Position numbers and translations under genes: made by a program
Shown here: positions 1,544-50,256 of the stretch, in pieces
Numbering within the stretch: position 1 is the stretch's first letter
Layout of the letters: each line of letters begins with the position of its first letter
The notes under the pieces: model-generated
Told to the model about the DNA's origin: nothing
Database searches by the model: none
What the model saw: the letters and a program-made list of their open reading frames with translations, nothing else
Assembly (NCBI GenBank): GCA_964467035.1
Contig: CAYXNX010000003.1
Span: 21,252 to 85,251, forward strand
Reading direction: 5' to 3'
Length of the DNA stretch: 64,000 bases
Source of the DNA: Candidatus Woesearchaeota archaeon
GTDB taxonomy: Archaea; Nanobdellota; Nanobdellia; Pacearchaeales; GW2011-AR1

Positions 1544-1814
1544 CCTTCAACGAAATTTCTAATTCTCCTAAAATCTTTAAGTAAAAAAATAGCTAAAATC
1601 TCTCTCAGACATCCCCCGACCAACTCACAACCTCGCACGGCTTATTTTATTCTTATTTACTGCCTACCACGAAGTTGCTCGCCCACCTCCGGTTACGAGG
1701 TGCGCGCCTGTCCTTCGGACATTTAGTTAAACCTCGTTTCAGATTTATTTAGAAATAATCTTTTTTCCGCCGCCCAATCAATAACTTAATAAATAACATA
1801 TAGAATTAATCTTC

Positions 1815-2414
1815 ATGAAAGACTATGTAAATCCTCACGTACATGATTGGATGTTTCTCCAAGGAAATCCTGTATTATTTGGAGAAGAAAGAAAAGGTTT
1901 ACAAAGATTTTTAGAAAGATGGGATGAGCAAGAAACGTTTTTTTATACAAGAGATTCGAAAAAAGACATAGATACTTTCCGAAGGCTAGTTCAAATGAAA
2001 GAGGTATTTATTAGGTCTTTTGGAGAAATAGATTATGGAGAAGATTCGGAATATATGAAAATTTATGTCCCTTTTCATTTTACTAAAACAGGTGAAAATC
2101 TAGACAATTTTTGTTTATTTGCATATGATGAATTATTGGATAAATATCCCCATAAAAAAATGGTTGATGCGTTAATGTTTATGAGAGATTGTATTCAAGA
2201 AGATTACGCCTTTTATACGCGAATCATTAAAGGGGATGAGGATTTGCTTGGTTCAGATTATATTTTTTTAAACGATCGGGAGAGGTCTTTTATGTACGCT
2301 TCGGATAGGGATGAATGCAGTGGAGGAACCCCCTATACTCGTTGTCGGTATTTTGATTCTCCAATTTGCGATAATTGTCGTTTTCCAAACAATCATTTAT
2401 TTGAAGAAAAATAA
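1815..2414 (+). CDS. hypothetical protein with a Cys-rich C-terminus (accessory ORF bracketed by Family A repeats)
   Basis: 199-aa ORF with no recognisable family. C-terminal CSGG..C.Y....CDNC cluster. Flanked by GC-rich repeat regions. Confidence 0.5.
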   Translation: MKDYVNPHVHDWMFLQGNPVLFGEERKGLQRFLERWDEQETFFYTRDSKKDIDTFRRLVQMKEVFIRSFGEIDYGEDSEYMKIYVPFHFTKTGENLDNFCLFAYDELLDKYPHKKMVDALMFMRDCIQEDYAFYTRIIKGDEDLLGSDYIFLNDRERSFMYASDRDECSGGTPYTRCRYFDSPICDNCRFPNNHLFEEK

Positions 2415-2446
2415 TATCCAATCCCTCCCAAAAAAGATTATTTCAT

Positions 2447-27949: not shown

Positions 27950-28333
27950 TATTTAAATTTATCGTTATCTAAAAATTATGCTCCCACCAGACATATATCA
28001 CTCCCTAAAAGGATTACATCTCTTTCTTCTTGATTTATCTTTTAATTACCATTTTGTCTCATTAAGAAGTTTTGTCCATCTCTGAAGTGTTCTTTTCCTT
28101 ACCTCAACAAATTTGGAGAAAATAATTTTTCTACACTGATTTTGTAATCCATATGAACCGCCATTTATAAATTATAAATTTAATTATATTCTAAAGATTT
28201 CTTTTTTAACATGTCTGATGGACTGGAATTGCCCTCTTTTTCTAAAAGAACATTAAACTTAAACTAAATTGCAACCAACATCGGGCTTAAAAGAAGTTTA
28301 ATTTACTCTAAAAAATCCTCCTCGTGAAACAAA

Positions 28334-28413
28334 GCTGATAATTTTTTCAGAGCTGGGGCGAAATTTTGGGAAATCATCCAGTTTGAGATTTCCTCTTTAT
28401 CTTCTGTTCAACG
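28334..28413. repeat. Family B structured hairpin repeat, copy B1
   Basis: gctgataa...ctgttcaacg outer arms and ggaaatc/gatttcc apical stem. 28341-28375 is identical to 47457-47491 (35 nt). Flanking homology to 47375-47456 begins near 28267. Confidence 0.8.
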
Positions 28414-28506
28414 ACCCAATCTGATAGGCGAGAATGCAACATTCTGAAGTAAAATTTTAGGCGAGGGCTCTGTTTTTAATCTTTTTATGAAGCAAAGTTT
28501 TGTTAT

Positions 28507-29309: not shown

Positions 29310-29395
29310 GCTGATAACACTGGAATTTAACGAAGTTTTGCCGTAGAAAAAATTTGGGAAAATCCTGCAGGATTTTCTGTTTAAGCCCTGTTATG
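29310..29395. repeat. Family B structured hairpin repeat, copy B3
   Basis: gctgataac ... gttatg outer boxes. Perfect 20-nt palindrome gaaaatcctgcaggattttc at 29358-29377. The downstream segment 29397-29467 is homologous to 47530-47583. Confidence 0.75.
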
Positions 29396-29562
29396 TCTTC
29401 CGAGGTCTTTAACACGAGAGCCTGCAAGGCGTGGCACGAGCAGAACGAACGAAGTGACCTCGTGAGTTTCCAATCTCCGAAAATTCGTTGTTATCGTAGT
29501 TGTCAGAGAATTATTTTGAATTTGCCGAAAATTTTAAAAATAGAGAACATCTTCTTTTTTGT

Positions 29563-40458: not shown

Positions 40459-40690
40459 ATTTTGACAAATATTTGAAGTTTTATATTAATTTATATATAA
40501 AAAAAGATGTATTAAAATAACTAAGGGACCTAAATAATAAGGTCCCTTTTCTGCCCCCTCCTTCTCCCAACCCTGCTCGCCTTGTTCCATCCTTTTCAAA
40601 CCCCCACTCGCAAAGTTGCTCTGACTCGAAAAATCAAATTTTGAATCTCAACAAATCTACGAAGTAGTAGGGAATCTACGATTCCCAATA

Positions 40691-40919
40691 TGCCCCCTCC
40701 GGGACTCGAACCCGGGTCTGGGCCGTTCTCCGAAGATCCCAAAATTCGCTGAAAAAACGAAAGCTTCTTCATTAACTCTCGGGACCTAACAATTAACTAA
40801 TTGTCGACCTATGAAGTCTTGCCAGAGAGCAGCTGATTTGAGAATCTAGGTTTATCCTTTCATCAAGGATAAACCACTGCTCGAGAGGGCCCAATGCTTG
40901 ACCGCTACACCAAAGGGGC
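40691..40919 (-). tRNA. tRNA-Glu (anticodon CUC) with an intron of about 156 nt at 37/38
   Basis: 5' exon GCCCCUUUGGUGUAGCGGUCAAGCAUUGGGCCCUCUCG (40919-40882). 3' exon CGGCCCAGACCCGGGUUCGAGUCCCGGAGGGGGCA (40725-40691). The acceptor, D, anticodon and T stems all pair. A bulge-helix-bulge can be drawn: a 4-bp helix CUCU/GGAG flanked by 3-nt bulges CGA and AAC. Confidence 0.8.
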
Positions 40920-40955
40920 ATAAATAACCTCAATTTTCTAAGTATAAAAATCTTA

Positions 40956-42671: not shown

Positions 42672-42789
42672 GGCTCGAATCAAACGCTCCAAGCAGGATT
42701 CGATCCTGTATGTTGAGTTTACGAAACATCCGCAACAAAGTGAGGACAAAGGTTCGAATCAAACTCTCCAAGCAGGATTCCATCCTATA
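42672..42789. repeat. tandem tRNA-T-arm-like repeats abutting the 3' end of tRNA-Gln (79-nt period)
   Basis: 42672-42710 and 42751-42789 match at 35/39 positions (ggYtcgaatcaaacKctccaagcaggattcSatcctRta). The core caggattcga resembles the tRNA-Gln T-arm at 42801-42816. A third related copy is at 41812-41830. Confidence 0.7.
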
Positions 42790-42791
42790 AA

Positions 42792-42864
42792 TAGCCCGTC
42801 CAGGATTCGAACCTGGGTCAGCTGGCCCAGAACCAGCTATACTTGACCACTGTACTAACGGGCT
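42792..42864 (-). tRNA. tRNA-Gln (anticodon CUG), no intron
   Basis: AGCCCGUUAGUACAGUGGUCAAGUAUAGCUGGUUCUGGGCCAGCUGACCCAGGUUCGAAUCCUGGACGGGCUA folds into a full cloverleaf. A1-U72 is typical of archaeal tRNA-Gln. Confidence 0.85.
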
Positions 42865-45379: not shown

Positions 45380-45472
45380 AGCCACTGACGGGACTTGAAC
45401 CCGTGACCTCGTCATTTTTGATATTATCATAGTACCAATGACGCGCTCTATCCTAAACTGAGCTACAGCGGC
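45380..45472 (-). tRNA. tRNA-Thr (anticodon GGU) with an intron of about 17 nt at 37/38
   Basis: GCCGCUGUAGCUCAGUUUAGGAUAGAGCGCGUCAUUGGUA[CUAUGAUAAUAUCAAAA]AUGACGAGGUCACGGGUUCAAGUCCCGUCAGUGGC. All four stems pair. Exact splice points are approximate. Confidence 0.8.
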
Positions 45473-45596: not shown

Positions 45597-45887
45597 CTAA
45601 AATAAATCTGGTTTCCACCTAAAAAGATCTTCTAAGTTTATTCTTTCCAAGCCCTTGCCAGTAGAAGTAATTGAAATTGAATCTTTGCCTAATTTTTTTG
45701 AAATCACCTTAATTAATTCTAAATTTTCATCAGACATCAAAGGTTCTCCTCCAGAAATATCTAAACTCACATTTAGAATATCTATATTCTCAATAACTGC
45801 TAATTTTTCCCCTAAAGAAAGATCTTTTGTGGGGCTATTTGCATCAAGACAGCAAAAATAACACGAGTAAAGGCATTTATTCGTCAC
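45597..45887 (-). pseudogene. radical SAM protein remnant (N-terminal ~96 codons only)
   Basis: NVTNKCLYSCYFC CX3CX2C motif plus GGEPL, but the ORF stops after 96 aa. The remaining ~120 nt before tRNA-Thr cannot hold the rest of a radical SAM domain. Confidence 0.5.
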
Positions 45888-46110
45888 ATTCCAAATTAGG
45901 GTGTTTTTATCATTTTCATTTTTTCAAGAATTAAGCATCTTGAGGTGCTAACACCTCTAAAAAAAGATATATAAACAGATATATAAATTTAATTGAAACG
46001 AAGTTTCAGCTATCTAATTTTCGATAGAAAAATTGCGCGCGCTTCTTTGGGTGGGAATTATCAATTAGAGATTTAAATTTTTAGCCCTCTTTCTCAATTG
46101 CAATTAACAT

Positions 46111-46184
46111 CGGAATTTAGCGAAGTCGTGAGCGTAGCGAACGATTTTGGAAAATGCGAGCCGAGCATTTTTCCGTTAAATTCC
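46111..46184. repeat. Family B structured hairpin repeat, copy B4
   Basis: Outer stem cggaatttagcg / ccgttaaattcc. Inner stem ggaaaatgc / gcatttttcc. Shares ggaatttaRcgaagt and gcgtag motifs with 29321-29346. Confidence 0.75.
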
Positions 46185-46313
46185 TATTATATTCGTTTTT
46201 CCCAGTAAAAACCTGGGCCAAAGTGAAACGGTTTTTGCGAAGGAAGCACCATTAGTTAAAAGAATAAAGGGCAGGGATTCATTAATTTACTACTATTTAA
46301 TTACTATATAACA

Positions 46314-46328
46314 GAAACATTTATAAGG
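46314..46328 (+). promoter_or_regulatory. BRE/TATA-like box (gaaacatttataagg) 22-24 nt upstream of the ATG at 46350
   Basis: Read directly. Same element type as at 11188-11200. Confidence 0.45.
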
Positions 46329-46349
46329 TATTAAATTTCTCTAGATATT

Positions 46350-47342
46350 ATGGCAAATGAAACACACTATGGTGTAATATCTGATGTTCATCAAGACCCA
46401 GGAATAGTTCCAGCAACTATTGAAGTTTTGAAAAAATTGGGTGCAGAAAAACTTTTGATAAACGGGGATATTGGAAATCAGCAGAGAACTCTTGAAGATA
46501 GTAAAAATTATGTTGCTTTTATTCTTGATTCAATTGGAAAAAGTGGACTTGAATCTTATGTTCAGCCAGGAAGCCATGAAACACTACTTGCTTTTGGACC
46601 TGTAATGGATGCTTTTGCAGATAAATATTCAAATTTAATTGATGCAACAAAAACTCCAAAAGCAGAACAAAAAGGTCATAGTCTAATTTTCTTGCCAGGT
46701 TCAGATTTTCTTTGTGGTGGGGAATATCAAATCGGAAATCATGAACAAATTCCAAGTGGAAGATATATTCAAACTCAAAAAGGATTAATGCAATTTGAAG
46801 AATTTGGTCAATATGTTGGTGCTCTTCAACAAGGAATTGCTCAAGGAGCAATGCAATATGCCAACATGAATGATTTACGAAGATTGGTAAATGATTCAGA
46901 CAAAAGTATTGTTGTTTGTCATGTTCCAAGAAAATTTGACAATCCTGAATATGCAGTTGATATGGCTGAATTCGGAGAAGCAACAGAAAAATTTAATCTA
47001 AATGGTAATGATGTTGAGCAAGGTTCTGTATTTCCTCTGTCTGTTGCACAGCAGATTGTTCAAGCAGGTTATCCTGTTGAGATAAGACAAGAAAATAGAG
47101 GAAATAAGGATTTAAAATCATTATATGAAGAATTAGGAATAAATAAAGCAGTTAGTGGGCATTTCCATGAGAGTGGACACAGAGCAAATGACACTTATGG
47201 AAATCACGTTTCTGAAGGAAATTTAGTAACTGATTTATTTTGGAATTCTGGACATTTAGATACTGGACAAACAGGAATTTTGACAGTTGGAGACGGAAAA
47301 GTAGGTTATAGAAATATCCGTCTTGAAGAACATCTGAAATAG
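46350..47342 (+). CDS. calcineurin-like metallophosphoesterase (accessory ORF in island 2)
   Basis: ISDVHQD, INGDIGN, GSHE, CHVP and GHFHES motifs in canonical order. Confidence 0.7.
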   Translation: MANETHYGVISDVHQDPGIVPATIEVLKKLGAEKLLINGDIGNQQRTLEDSKNYVAFILDSIGKSGLESYVQPGSHETLLAFGPVMDAFADKYSNLIDATKTPKAEQKGHSLIFLPGSDFLCGGEYQIGNHEQIPSGRYIQTQKGLMQFEEFGQYVGALQQGIAQGAMQYANMNDLRRLVNDSDKSIVVCHVPRKFDNPEYAVDMAEFGEATEKFNLNGNDVEQGSVFPLSVAQQIVQAGYPVEIRQENRGNKDLKSLYEELGINKAVSGHFHESGHRANDTYGNHVSEGNLVTDLFWNSGHLDTGQTGILTVGDGKVGYRNIRLEEHLK

Positions 47343-47449
47343 AATCCCTGCCCCTTCTATATTTAGCCGATTTTTTTATTGAGTTTAACATCGTGATTAA
47401 GAGAAGTGGCAATCCCTCCAAAAATTTATCCTCTGGAACGAAGTGACTA

Positions 47450-47530
47450 GCTGAGGATTTTTTCAGAGCTGGGGCGAAATTTTGGGAAATCCCAAGCCGA
47501 AGGATTTCATCTTTATCCCCTGTTATCAGC
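47450..47530. repeat. Family B structured hairpin repeat, copy B2
   Basis: gctgagga ... gttatcagc outer boxes and ggaaatcc / ggatttc apical stem. 47457-47491 is identical to 28341-28375. Confidence 0.8.
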
Positions 47531-47681
47531 CCCGAGGGCTTTAGCCCGAGAACGCAGTGGGGCACGAAGTGAGTTCGAGACGCCTCTTTTTTGTATTTTG
47601 AAATAATATTTTTTTGGGTGGGCTATGTATTAGAGAAGGCACTTTCGTTAAGTTAATAAATAAAACAACTTTCCCATAATC

Positions 47682-48527
47682 ATGAAAAATTCAGATTTGC
47701 ATACACATAGTTATTATTCGGATGGAGATTTGCCTCCTTCAGAAGTTGTAAAATTAGCAAAACAAAAAGGAATAAAAAATTTAGCAATTGCAGACCACAA
47801 TTCTTTTGAAGGAGTTGCTGAAGCAGTTAAGGAAGGCAAAAAACAAGGAATTAATGTTATTCCTGCAATAGAAATTCGTGCAAAAGAAGATGAGGTTTTG
47901 GGCTACTTTATTGATTACCAAAATGAAAATTTTAAAAAAGAGGTAGAGAAAATTCAAGAAAACCTCATCGACAGAGTTAAAAAAATAATTTTAAAATTAA
48001 ACAAAAAAGGAATAGATGTTAGTTTTGAAGATTTGCTTAAAACATATCATCCAAACAGAAATTTCATGGAGATTCATCTTATAAAATATTTGAAATCTAT
48101 TGGCTTGGGAGATATTAGAGAATTATGGCCAAAATATATTTCAAAAGAAGGGGAAACTTATGTTCCTGTTGAAGAAATTTCTATTTTAGATGCAATAAAA
48201 TTAATCAAAAAATATGGTGGCGTTCCTGTTTTGGCTCATCCGTGGGTAGAGTTAAGTTCAAAAGAATTGTTAAAAGAAGAAAATTTTAAGGAGTTGGTTA
48301 AAGCGGGATTAAAAGGAATAGAAATAGATAATGGCGATAGGGATGACAGAAGAGATGAGCAAACATTAAAGAAAATTAAAGAATTAGCAGAAAAGTATAA
48401 TCTTATCATCACTTCTGGTAGTGATTTTCATGGGGATTATTTAGTTCAAGCTACAAAATGTCATGGACTTGGAGATTATAATTGTGATGAGAAAGTTGTT
48501 GAAGAATTGAAAAAAGCAAAAGAGTAG
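47682..48527 (+). CDS. PHP-domain phosphoesterase (accessory ORF in island 2)
   Basis: DLHTHSYYSDG, IADHNS, the LAHP-type histidine, and SGSDFHG. Confidence 0.8.
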   Translation: MKNSDLHTHSYYSDGDLPPSEVVKLAKQKGIKNLAIADHNSFEGVAEAVKEGKKQGINVIPAIEIRAKEDEVLGYFIDYQNENFKKEVEKIQENLIDRVKKIILKLNKKGIDVSFEDLLKTYHPNRNFMEIHLIKYLKSIGLGDIRELWPKYISKEGETYVPVEEISILDAIKLIKKYGGVPVLAHPWVELSSKELLKEENFKELVKAGLKGIEIDNGDRDDRRDEQTLKKIKELAEKYNLIITSGSDFHGDYLVQATKCHGLGDYNCDEKVVEELKKAKE

Positions 48528-48563
48528 AAAGTGCCTTCTCCTATTGGGTGAGAGAAAAAATCT

Positions 48564-48585
48564 GATTTCCTATTTCTGTATTAAC
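48564..48585. repeat. Family B right-arm-only copy (half site)
   Basis: gatttcctatttctgtattaac resembles the right arm gatttcctctttatcttctgttcaac of copy B1. No matching left arm. Confidence 0.5.
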
Positions 48586-48630
48586 TCTAACTTGTAGGCA
48601 TTCTCAAAAATTGAAACTAACAAGACGGAC

Positions 48631-50256
48631 CTACTTATTCAGAATTTCGTCAAGATTAATTTCCATAAAAGAAACAGGCATCTTGATTTTATAATTGCTT
48701 AATAACTTTGGATGAACCTCTCCAAAATAACCTAAAGAAACATCTCCATAAAACACCTCCCCCACTCTTCCCGGGATAAATTTATCCAGCTCTTCTAAAG
48801 GCTCTTTTACTTTTAATTCAACACCCAACATTCTCCCAAAATAATCAATAATTTGCTTTAATTTAGTAAAATTTCCTGGTGCAATAGCAATCATCAAATT
48901 CAAATTTTCCTCTACTTTGGTTTCAAATTTTTCATTTTTGTTAAAAACTTTTCCAATTTCAAAAATCTCTTGAGGGTATGAAACATCAACATTTTCTCCC
49001 AAAATTCTCATAGCAGGAATAAAAAGATTAGGCCTCAAATATTTATACTCTGTTTTAGAACCTTCAACTTCTATAAGATTTTCAAATTTGTTTTTCTTAC
49101 CTTCTGAATCTTTAATTAAGTGATAAGAAGAAACCTCTAATAAATTAGCTCCTACAAGTATTGATGAAACTAACGATTGAAATTCAGATTCTTTAGATTG
49201 TTTTCCAATAGTTGATATGTTTGGAATCTCAGGAGAAATTTTATCATACCCATAAGCAATTGCAATTTCTTCTATCAAATCCACCTCGTGCAAAATATCA
49301 ACTCTCCAGGGAGCTATTTCCACTTTGCCTTTATAATAATTATGTCCCATCTTTTTAATTAAATTTTCAATTTCTTTTTCCTTAAGCTTTAAACCCAACA
49401 AATTATTAACCTTTTCAGTTGACAAATCAATTTTTTCAGGTTTAAAATCTGGCAATTTTTCAGATTTAGAATATTTAACATCACACTGATAAATTTCTCC
49501 CCCCATCCCAGCCAAAGTCGCAACAACAATATTCAAACACTTTTTCAAAGTTTCAAAATCAGCTCCAGAACACTCAATAAAAACCTCCTCAGTTTCTTCA
49601 GAAATCTTCCCAGTTCTATGGGAATTAATAATTGGAGGCATACTTAAAATCTCTTTATTCGCATCAATAAAAATAGGGTATTTTTCAAAACCCTGTAACA
49701 AATCCCCGTATTCTCTTCCCGCAGGATGTTGTGACAAAATTTGCCTTCCATTTATTTCTTTAGGAAATTCCAATGGTTGAAATTTAATCTTATCCGGAAA
49801 CTCAGCTTTGTAAGTTATAGGAAATTTAATTTTCTCCAAAGGATAAATTCCAATCGCTAATTTCTTTCTCTTTCTTCCCAAAGTGTTATGCAATTTTTCC
49901 TGAATGTCAACTATTTCTTTAATTTTTTCATCACTAAATTTTAAATTTTTCACAACAGCACATGCAGTAAAAGGTCTAACTTCCTTAACAGAATTATCAA
50001 TCCGAACCTTATAATTGCTTTTCTTAATATTGTATTCTCTAATTCCCCCCTTACTTTTACCCAAAAACTGCTTAAAACTCGCTATATAATTCTGAAAACT
50101 CAAAAGATCTGGCCGATTCGGAAAAATTTCAATCTCAACTTCTTTATTATCGATTCTTTCCAAGGAAGTCCCAAATAAAGAAATTTTTTCAATAATCTCG
50201 TCGCTAAGTTTAACACTTTTTTCAAATTCTTCTCTTGGAAAAATTACATTTGCCAT
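48631..50256 (-). CDS. pheT: phenylalanine--tRNA ligase beta subunit (archaeal type)
   Basis: Archaeal PheT architecture (B3/4 and B5 domains). IFPNRPDLLS. Adjacent to pheS with a 1-nt overlap. Confidence 0.9.
   Translation of the reverse strand: MANVIFPREEFEKSVKLSDEIIEKISLFGTSLERIDNKEVEIEIFPNRPDLLSFQNYIASFKQFLGKSKGGIREYNIKKSNYKVRIDNSVKEVRPFTACAVVKNLKFSDEKIKEIVDIQEKLHNTLGRKRKKLAIGIYPLEKIKFPITYKAEFPDKIKFQPLEFPKEINGRQILSQHPAGREYGDLLQGFEKYPIFIDANKEILSMPPIINSHRTGKISEETEEVFIECSGADFETLKKCLNIVVATLAGMGGEIYQCDVKYSKSEKLPDFKPEKIDLSTEKVNNLLGLKLKEKEIENLIKKMGHNYYKGKVEIAPWRVDILHEVDLIEEIAIAYGYDKISPEIPNISTIGKQSKESEFQSLVSSILVGANLLEVSSYHLIKDSEGKKNKFENLIEVEGSKTEYKYLRPNLFIPAMRILGENVDVSYPQEIFEIGKVFNKNEKFETKVEENLNLMIAIAPGNFTKLKQIIDYFGRMLGVELKVKEPLEELDKFIPGRVGEVFYGDVSLGYFGEVHPKLLSNYKIKMPVSFMEINLDEILNK

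Follow-up and report, generated by a model that had tools for sequence, protein, structure and literature searches.

A perfect inverted repeat framing a PHP phosphoesterase gene in a Candidatus Woesearchaeota archaeon, and a candidate gene-cassette system at a conserved repeat element

A gene for a PHP-domain phosphoesterase lies, together with its predicted promoter, within a perfect 14-bp inverted repeat in a 64-kb stretch of DNA (29% G+C; hereafter the window) from a Candidatus Woesearchaeota archaeon. By comparison with related genomes, this repeat is one instance of a gene-framing rule that extends across many Woesearchaeota and Pacearchaeota, and it is placement and recurrence, not repeat length, that make it non-random. 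We read the PHP gene and its promoter as a putative integrated cassette whose palindromic attachment site would have been split by recombination at a short G-rich core, an interpretation in which our confidence is about even. All of the evidence comes from comparative sequence analysis; promoters were read from sequence, the roles given to TATA-like boxes are predicted, and gene calls in the loci of relatives are crude open reading frame (ORF) calls. Loci from other genomes are numbered with the prefix L. The gene content of the window is archaeal and includes an archaeal-type PheRS, a ThrRS with an archaeal editing domain and two tRNAs.

Placement and recurrence of the framing repeat

The arms GAGAAGGCACTTTC and GAAAGTGCCTTCTC (coordinates in Table 1) are exact reverse complements. 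The G of the TAG stop codon (48525-48527) of the PHP ORF is also the first base of the right arm, and the left arm, which ends 35 nt before the ATG, stands just 5' of the TATA-like element TTAATAAATAAAA. An earlier note on this DNA had described these three features, and reading of the sequence confirmed them. The PHP protein has more than 4000 homologs, to which some sources give the name TrpH or 3',5'-nucleoside bisphosphate phosphatase, and its gene is widespread, with neighbors that differ in each lineage examined. The distance between the ATG and the TATA-like box is matched in 21 other framed genes, and from the position of the box a leaderless or near-leaderless PHP mRNA is predicted, which would start 3' of the left arm.

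The earlier note had also considered such a repeat very unlikely to arise by chance, a claim that is valid only when position is taken into account. When all perfect inverted repeats of the window with arms of 11 nt or longer, 100-3000 bp apart, were listed, the pair around the PHP gene and the pair around the adjacent gene had the two lowest composition-based probabilities (log10 p -9.10 and -8.82). A single equally improbable repeat, with its arms within 3 kb, occurred somewhere in 8 of 60 simulated windows (first-order Markov), so length alone does not carry the claim; two such repeats occurred in none of the 60. Placement was examined by scoring the pairing of the 130 nt upstream of each gene with its own 70 nt downstream, for 72 window genes and with 1500 mismatched pairs as the null (99th percentile 19.4, maximum 25.4). 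Three of the 72 genes scored high, namely the PHP gene (30.2), the adjacent gene (29.3) and the ORF 1815..2414 (25.2), and the exact framing of the PHP gene has p < 1/1500.

The same test was applied to 276 ORFs of at least 110 aa from 57 Nanoarchaeota loci that bear the repeat element described below, with mirror and complement controls. A score of at least 22 was reached by 28 genes (mirror control 1, complement control 3), at least 24 by 23 genes (1 and 0) and at least 26 by 16 genes (none in either control). Thus the statement of the earlier note that the PHP repeat follows the pattern of the adjacent gene was borne out, and the pattern extends to a third gene of the window and to ~10% of the genes in related Nanoarchaeota loci. 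Most of the repeats (25 of 28) are unique and measure 12-16 bp. As a rule, 25-66 nt separate the left arm from the ATG, and a TATA-like box stands ~25-30 nt before the ATG. For 12 of the 25 unique repeats, the start of the right arm falls between -3 and +6 nt relative to the stop codon, which makes the position of the arm at the stop codon a lineage-wide feature. We give virtually no credence to a chance inverted 14-mer: the simulated windows with one comparable repeat speak for it, and against it stand the exact gene-framing placement, the finding that the two best repeats of the window are adjacent and share one geometry, the homologous junctions in dozens of genomes, and the excess of framed genes over 0-1 in the controls at a score of at least 24.

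The earlier note had tied its proposal to arms that are conserved and covary in orthologous loci, and both properties were found. A PHP ortholog (L002, 88% identical) also lies between repeat-like sequences and keeps inner arms (TTTTGGGGCACTCTC and GAGATTGCCCAAAA) in which approximately six positions per arm are changed relative to the window, most of them with compensation. This ortholog has, in addition, a perfect 16-bp outer repeat with GGTGG motifs on both sides, and the gene adjoining it has its own perfect 16-bp framing repeat. Orthologs of the adjacent framed gene of the window (94-95% protein identity) occur in four neighborhoods (the window, L111, L117-119 and L121), one of which is a toxin-antitoxin-rich array containing a recombinase gene, and the arms are kept in all four. 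They are perfect in two contexts, carry two A.C mismatches in L111, and show one compensatory change from G:C to A:T together with one G.T in L121. The block that these orthologs have in common (~46245-47393) extends past the left arm by ~24 nt and past the right arm by ~40 nt, and its right end is TTTAACATC, the start of the next repeat element.

Nested junctions and the conserved repeat element

The 14-bp repeat is the inner pair of arms, Q and Q', of a nested arrangement in which a 15-bp outer arm P, a core K (GGGTGGG), a spacer s and Q precede the promoter and ORF, and Q', a spacer s', a second K and an outer arm P' follow them (Table 1). The core is a direct repeat, and both pairs of arms are inverted. 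The surroundings of K read TTGGGTGGG at 46047 and 47614 and TTGGGTGAG at 48544; this motif has 7 matches versus 2.1 expected, and P alone, with 2 mismatches allowed, is not enriched (29 matches versus 28.9 expected).

A pattern scan of one genome per species, which demanded exact P and K, gave 90 loci. About 55 of them belong to metagenome-assembled genomes (MAGs) of Woesearchaeota, Pacearchaeota or Nanoarchaeota, in which an identical P is followed by GGGTGG and the sequence around the motif is ~95% identical. The canonical left junction reads P-GGGTGG-gctatgtatta-GAGAGACGCGCGC and lies 0.8-6.2 kb upstream of the right junction. The latter is present in ~20 loci, canonically as GCGCGCGTCTCTC-CTATT-GGGTGGGAG-AAAAAATATTATTTC followed by a conserved tail, and the tail sequence ctatttctttgttttaactctaacttgtaggcattctcaaaaattgaaac of the window likewise follows it in more than 10 loci. 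The core is kept at both junctions in ~20 loci. In ~15-20 MAG loci, the junctions enclose one to four genes, which encode unrelated proteins and may have either orientation; in L061, the junctions are only 31 bp apart.

The inner arms change from locus to locus. The sequence GAGAGACGCGC(GC) is found on both sides in ~15 loci, and L062 and L063 have GAGAAGTTGTTGC and GCAACAACTTCTC. When the canonical arms, those of L062/L063 and those of the window are compared, the outer GAGA of Q and TCTC of Q' are constant, and the inner part differs but remains complementary between Q and Q'. The third framed gene of the window has nearly the same P arms, with reverse-complement copies of K (CCGCCGCCCAA, 1767-1777, and CCCTCCCAA, 2423-2431) within them. 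A second conserved G-rich motif, GGGG(C/T)GGGTGGTCGGGGGTT, was seen beside framed genes (L048 5255-5285, L002 6866-6886) and may be a variant of K.

Table 1. Features of the framed genes, their junctions and the repeat element in the window
Feature	Position	Strand	Basis or remark
PHP-domain phosphoesterase cargo gene, 281 aa	47682..48527	+	Pfam PF02811, E 6e-15
TATA-like box TTAATAAATAAAA, ~24 nt before the PHP ATG	47653..47665	+	sequence; promoter role predicted, not mapped
Outer arm P GAAATAATATTTTTT, putative platform-side half	47600..47614	+	pairs 13/15 with 48555-48569
Core K, GGGTGGG, left copy, proposed crossover region	47616..47622	+	direct repeat
Spacer s CTATGTATTA, between K and Q	47623..47632	+	gctatgtatta in the canonical junction elsewhere
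Inner arm Q GAGAAGGCACTTTC	47633..47646	+	at the place of canonical Q GAGAGACGCGCGC
Inner arm Q' GAAAGTGCCTTCTC, sharing the last base of the stop codon	48527..48540	+	sequence, pairing score
Spacer s' CTATT and right K GGGTGAG (48546-48552)	48541..48552	+	canonical elsewhere: CTATT GGGTGGGAG
Outer arm P' AAAAAATCTGATTTC	48555..48569	+	2 mismatches to the reverse complement of P
Tail including R' GGCATTCTCAAAAA (48597-48610), ending at the pheT stop	48570..48625	+	inverted partial copy of the 3' body of the element
Element copy B, 3' part replaced by the PHP cassette	47374..47636	+	nhmmer E 2e-33, model positions 3-277 of ~375
Divergent element copy A, 5' of the adjacent cassette	46100..46244	+	weak nhmmer match
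Adjacent cassette: arms GGGCAGGGATTC (46269-46280 / 47342-47353) around a metallophosphoesterase-like gene (46350..47342)	46269..47353	+	
Third framed gene, ORF 1815..2414, arms GAAATAATCTTTTTT (1752-1766 / 2430-2444)	1752..2444	+	pairing score 25.2

The left junction occupies the end of copy B, a G+C-rich stretch that is one copy of a conserved, structured repeat element of ~350 nt. An nhmmer profile for this element was built from 34 copies in other genomes; its consensus is conserved over ~355 nt, and past model position 277 copy B departs into the PHP cassette. Searches with a single sequence gave only 3-4 copies, and the divergent ones needed the profile from other genomes. Further copies in the window are located at 1345-1429, 2515-2606, 28267-28500 and ~29310-29460, with an exact block of 35 nt common to copy B and 28341-28375. 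Copy A has in common with the element the motif TTAACATCG and a covarying hairpin (ggaaaatgc/gcatttttcc). In other genomes, copies are frequent at contig ends and form same-orientation arrays that alternate with genes, as in L083 with five copies in 8 kb.

Hairpins of the element vary in sequence and keep their pairing (GAAACC/GGTTTC, GAAGTC/GACTTC, GAAAATCC/GGATTTTC and GAAATGCC/GGCATTTC). This covariation was judged by eye only, because the variable hairpins align poorly and RNAalifold gave no consensus for 24 element copies. In Rfam searches, only two tRNAs reached the gathering score in the window, and at E ≤ 10 nothing relevant was found in 45900-48700, in 1200-2800 or in the canonical L048 copy. 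The elements (46100-46260, 47440-47590, 1290-1720 and many loci) are also rich in C-GAAG-G / C-TTCG-G mini-hairpins, such as gtccttcggac, tgccttcggca and ccgaagg, which can be read as a cUUCGg RNA tetraloop on one strand or, on the other, as the d(CGAAG) mini-hairpin, very stable as DNA. Another observation is a direct repeat at the start and end of copy B (47397-47412 versus 47629-47642; ATTAAGAGAAGTGGCA and ATTAGAGAAGGCAC), which is also found in the element consensus (start GATTAAGAGAAG, end TATTAGAGAGAC); owing to this repeat, the left arm Q resembles the start motif of the element itself.

A proposed recombination model and its rivals

In the proposed mechanism, a circular cassette would consist of the promoter, the ORF and a palindromic site Q'-s'-K-s-Q, and the platform would be a palindromic, dif-like P-K-P' at the 3' end of the repeat element. 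A crossover at K would split both palindromes and yield P-K-s-Q ... Q'-s'-K-P', in which the two halves of the cassette site frame the gene according to the logic of attL and attR. The predicted circle junction is GAAAGTGCCTTCTC-CTATT-GGGTGGG-CTATGTATTA-GAGAAGGCACTTTC, and the predicted empty site is GAAATAATATTTTTT-GGGTG(G/A)G-AGAAAAAAT(A/C)T(T/G)ATTTC. Because arm sequences change while their complementarity is kept, the sites may be recognized by their structure, in the manner of integron attC or the folded attP of CTX. In single-stranded DNA folding, the reconstructed Q'-s'-K-s-Q gave -13.8 kcal/mol (z -5.9) and canonical P-K-P' gave -10.0 kcal/mol (z -5.2), with a reconstructed geometry of 15-7/9-15 that is conserved across genomes. 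A crossover in the loop of such a hairpin would leave each integrated gene bracketed by its own perfect inverted repeat. The broader proposal, which we put forward tentatively and with more doubt than belief, is that Woesearchaeales and Pacearchaeales possess an independently arisen cassette platform parallel to integrons, composed of the dif-like hairpin site of the element, a XerA-type enzyme and circular single-gene cassettes, which would be inserted by way of a hairpin-shaped site recognized by structure.

The likely enzyme would be a XerA-type tyrosine recombinase, which is encoded beyond the right junction in several other genomes. The link surfaced only through tblastn with a 268-aa tyrosine recombinase of L111, which scores 206.9 bits on the NCBIfam model recomb_XerA_Arch (cut-off 220) and 159.6 bits on the integron-integrase model TIGR02249 (cut-off 265), and homologs were found in eight further element loci. 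Five loci (L020, L107, L102, L031 and L108) have the order element body, P-K-s-Q, cargo, Q'-s'-K-P' and recombinase gene, the last in the same direction and starting 168-302 bp past the right junction. Among solved structures, the L020 recombinase matches Pyrococcus abyssi XerA best (4a8e, E 1e-50), with IntI4 (2a3v, 8e-37) behind it.

The L111 contig (1-10993; ENA ERZ27265937 k141_156198) deserves a description of its own. It carries a dense array of small ORFs and toxin-antitoxin genes (three ParE, PIN_2 with RHH, VapB with PIN), together with copies of the repeat element and the XerA-like recombinase gene, and resembles a sedentary integron array without attC sites.

The nested anatomy, the enrichment and tight geometry of the framing repeats, the complementary variation of the inner arms and the linkage to a recombinase gene in relatives all speak for the cassette interpretation; recombination itself has indirect support from the presence of one cassette in several neighborhoods and of differing cargo between identical junctions. 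Several observations weigh against this interpretation. PHP orthologs in compact contexts (L019, L018, L013 and L005) retain at most ~7 bp of the arms, and most uniquely framed genes, the adjacent one included, are without flanking direct copies of K. A regex search of 0.81 Mb of fetched loci found neither excised-circle junctions nor clean empty P-K-P' sites, and tblastn of the 64-kb window with the recombinase found no homolog. The sequence similarity between the P and Q arms is small, an unusual situation for tyrosine recombinases of the sequence-specific kind. In the window, P' has 2 mismatches, and folding of the empty site, as reconstructed, yields only a weak hairpin (-4.1 kcal/mol, z -0.9). 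The locus set itself is skewed toward canonical junctions, because the retrieval scan needed exact P and K.

The earlier note had suggested a bulge-helix-bulge or other RNA-processing motif around the stem, or alternatively a rearrangement of the DNA; the former found no support, and the evidence favors the latter. In our view, it is quite unlikely that the 5' flank of the gene pairs with its 3' flank in read-through transcripts, either for processing (bulge-helix-bulge, circularization) or for protection from exonucleases. The arrangement does share with the bulge-helix-bulge stems of archaeal rRNA and tRNA the long-range inverted repeats around a whole gene and the tolerance of compensatory change, and such gene-specific stems recall those of rRNA processing; the element bodies contain covarying hairpins with C(UUCG)G-type loops on one strand, and the two mismatches of L111 would be G.U pairs on the antisense strand. 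In all 21 cases inspected, however, the left arm is 5' of the predicted promoter and so is not part of the predicted transcript. The 37 framing repeats contain only a single G.T and a single A.C mismatch and are perfect in nearly every case, and arms that are near-perfect without a bias toward G.T favor a role at the DNA level; a wobble-pair signature is absent, and the cargo, unlike that of the rRNA and tRNA stems, is protein-coding. The Q/Q' duplex is 14 bp, perfect and without 3-nt bulges, and the unpaired K+s and s'+K, G-rich on both strands, cannot pair with each other. RNA folding of copy B revealed no excess stability on either strand (z 0.16 and -0.51), and no Rfam family matches. A bulge-helix-bulge stem proper (helix, 3-nt bulge, 4-bp helix, 3-nt bulge, helix, with both sides transcribed) is not supported either, the duplex being bulge-free and the left arm 5' of the TATA-like box. 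The sequences thus favor a DNA-level role over a processing stem of this kind.

It is unlikely, though less so than the transcript-pairing explanation, that the arms are terminal inverted repeats like those of miniature inverted-repeat transposable elements (MITEs), with a gene between element copies or inverted ends framed by the chance of its neighborhood and without any cassette biology. The canonical P, Q and R modules are carried by the element and identical in many genomes, P' is followed by a tail that repeats part of the element body in inverted form, and a Pfam summary of 150 neighboring ORFs gave no recurrent transposase or integrase family. The element also resembles MITE-like and palindromic repeats (REPIN/BIME, Correia elements) in being multi-copy, non-coding, hairpin-rich, intergenic and assembly-breaking, with copies at many contig ends. 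Against this, 25 of the 28 framing repeats are unique and arm variants move with the cargo. The ends of copy B (left GAATCCCTGCCC, right GAGAAGGCACTTTC) are not complementary, so the arms pair across genes and not across the element; no target-site duplication was seen. The core K is direct, not inverted, and flanks the cargo, not the element; like the non-complementary ends, this does not fit a MITE.

An invertible segment, in which a recombinase flips the gene between inverted arms and produces phase or orientation variation, is very unlikely. Inverted repeats do enclose a promoter and gene as a unit, cargo lies in either orientation to the junctions across loci, and some genomes have a tyrosine recombinase gene close by. 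However, an inversion would turn the promoter along with the gene, so that no switch of expression is apparent; the asymmetric core K is direct, not inverted, and the adjacent cassette has the same orientation to its flanks in all four contexts.

Known systems, other features of the window and implications

The cassette interpretation invites comparison with integrons (IntI/attC), including those of archaea (Ghaly et al. 2022, PMC9668308). Similarities are the arrays of unrelated, accessory single-gene units, one related array being rich in toxin-antitoxin pairs; the tyrosine recombinase gene at one end of an array; the tight boundaries, with a site arm that abuts or overlaps the stop codon; and palindromic sites that keep their structure while their sequence varies. 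In contrast to integrons, there is no attC of 57-141 bp with paired R''/L''-L'/R' boxes 3' of the ORF, the arms stand on opposite sides of the gene, the cassettes have their own promoters, the spacers are a conserved, structured element of ~350 nt, and the recombinase scores as XerA and not as IntI (on TIGR02249, 159.6 versus the cut-off of 265). The motifs of the element are absent from the supplements of the archaeal integron paper (PMC9668308).

An integron was rejected as a candidate: there is no IntI-type integrase by the array, the window has no tyrosine recombinase homolog by tblastn, and the enzymes of related loci score highest on archaeal XerA. Heptamers like integron core sites were observed at or near the cassette boundaries, namely GTTAAAA (46255-46261), GTTTAAC (47385-47391, fitting RYYYAAC) and GTTAAGT (47647-47653, fitting GTTRRRY). 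As an attC (R'' RYYYAAC ... R' GTTRRRY), GTTTAAC and GTTAAGT were also rejected, since they are 269 bp apart with no attC-like palindrome, as judged by eye only; the DNA before GTTAAGT pairs with DNA past the next gene, not with the stretch after GTTTAAC. None of the tested defining features of integrons was found in this system.

Xer-dependent systems include integrative mobile elements exploiting Xer (IMEX), such as the CTX phage with its folded hairpin attP, and the pdif modules of Acinetobacter plasmids. As reconstructed, the putative cassettes would share with them a Xer-family recombinase, a conserved palindromic site whose arms of 11-15 bp are separated by a short spacer, modules of genes between sites (toxin-antitoxin pairs among them), flanking sites that are mutually inverted, and a hairpin-forming attachment site in the mobile form. 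The arms of pdif and dif are conserved 11-bp protein-binding sequences, whereas the inner arms described here are cassette-specific; further differences are the direct repeat of the core and the chromosomal, archaeal setting. For archaeal dif, an 11-6-11 geometry has been described, and it is not beside xerA in Thermococcales (PMC2958812). The match to Xer/dif modules is only partial, with a Xer-type enzyme in five related loci and a dif-like palindrome by reconstruction.

The neighboring pheT protein, used as a query for synteny in genome contigs, did not find relatives, and an exact-protein look-up of pheT and PHP gave nothing but short contigs of the same sample, with breaks at the repeat. 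A scan of metagenomes with the PHP protein gave only 6 loci, and a scan of viral contigs gave a single match that was judged to be chance.

Some further features of the window were recorded. On the minus strand at 40690-40935, a tRNA-like 3' half (gccccctccgggactcgaacccgggtc...) and 5' half (...gcttgaccgctacaccaaaggggcat) stand ~200 nt apart and were called by neither ARAGORN nor Rfam; they may represent one tRNA interrupted by a very large intron, or else a tRNA that is split or decayed. Two direct copies of 39 nt (42672-42710 and 42751-42789), 90% identical and like a tRNA 3' half, lie beside tRNA-Gln (42792-42864), a pattern such as that left by elements that integrate into tRNA genes. The tRNA-Tyr call (45380-45472) is 93 nt long, a length that points to a probable intron. 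Between this tRNA gene and the cassettes, a 96-aa ORF on the minus strand (45597-45887), probably a truncated gene, matches radical SAM enzymes in their N-terminal part alone (CxxxCxxC region, Pfam E 6e-6).

Little is understood of how DPANN archaea, with their tiny genomes and their dependence on hosts, acquire and reshuffle accessory genes. Gene cassettes moved by site-specific recombination are a known kind of system, and the repeat around the PHP gene most likely marks an integron-like one; the repeat element, the split-arm architecture and the gene-framing rule were not described in the literature searched. If the cassette interpretation is true, these genomes would contain a lineage-specific cassette system of wide distribution whose site architecture is new, with one arm on either side of the gene instead of both joined behind it. 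Such a system would account for orthologs in differing neighborhoods among close relatives and for the breaks of assemblies at a conserved repeat. Perfect gene-framing repeats of 12-16 bp, together with P-K junctions, would then serve as a signature for mobile genes in these genomes, and the system would show how a housekeeping-type Xer recombinase could be recruited to gene capture.

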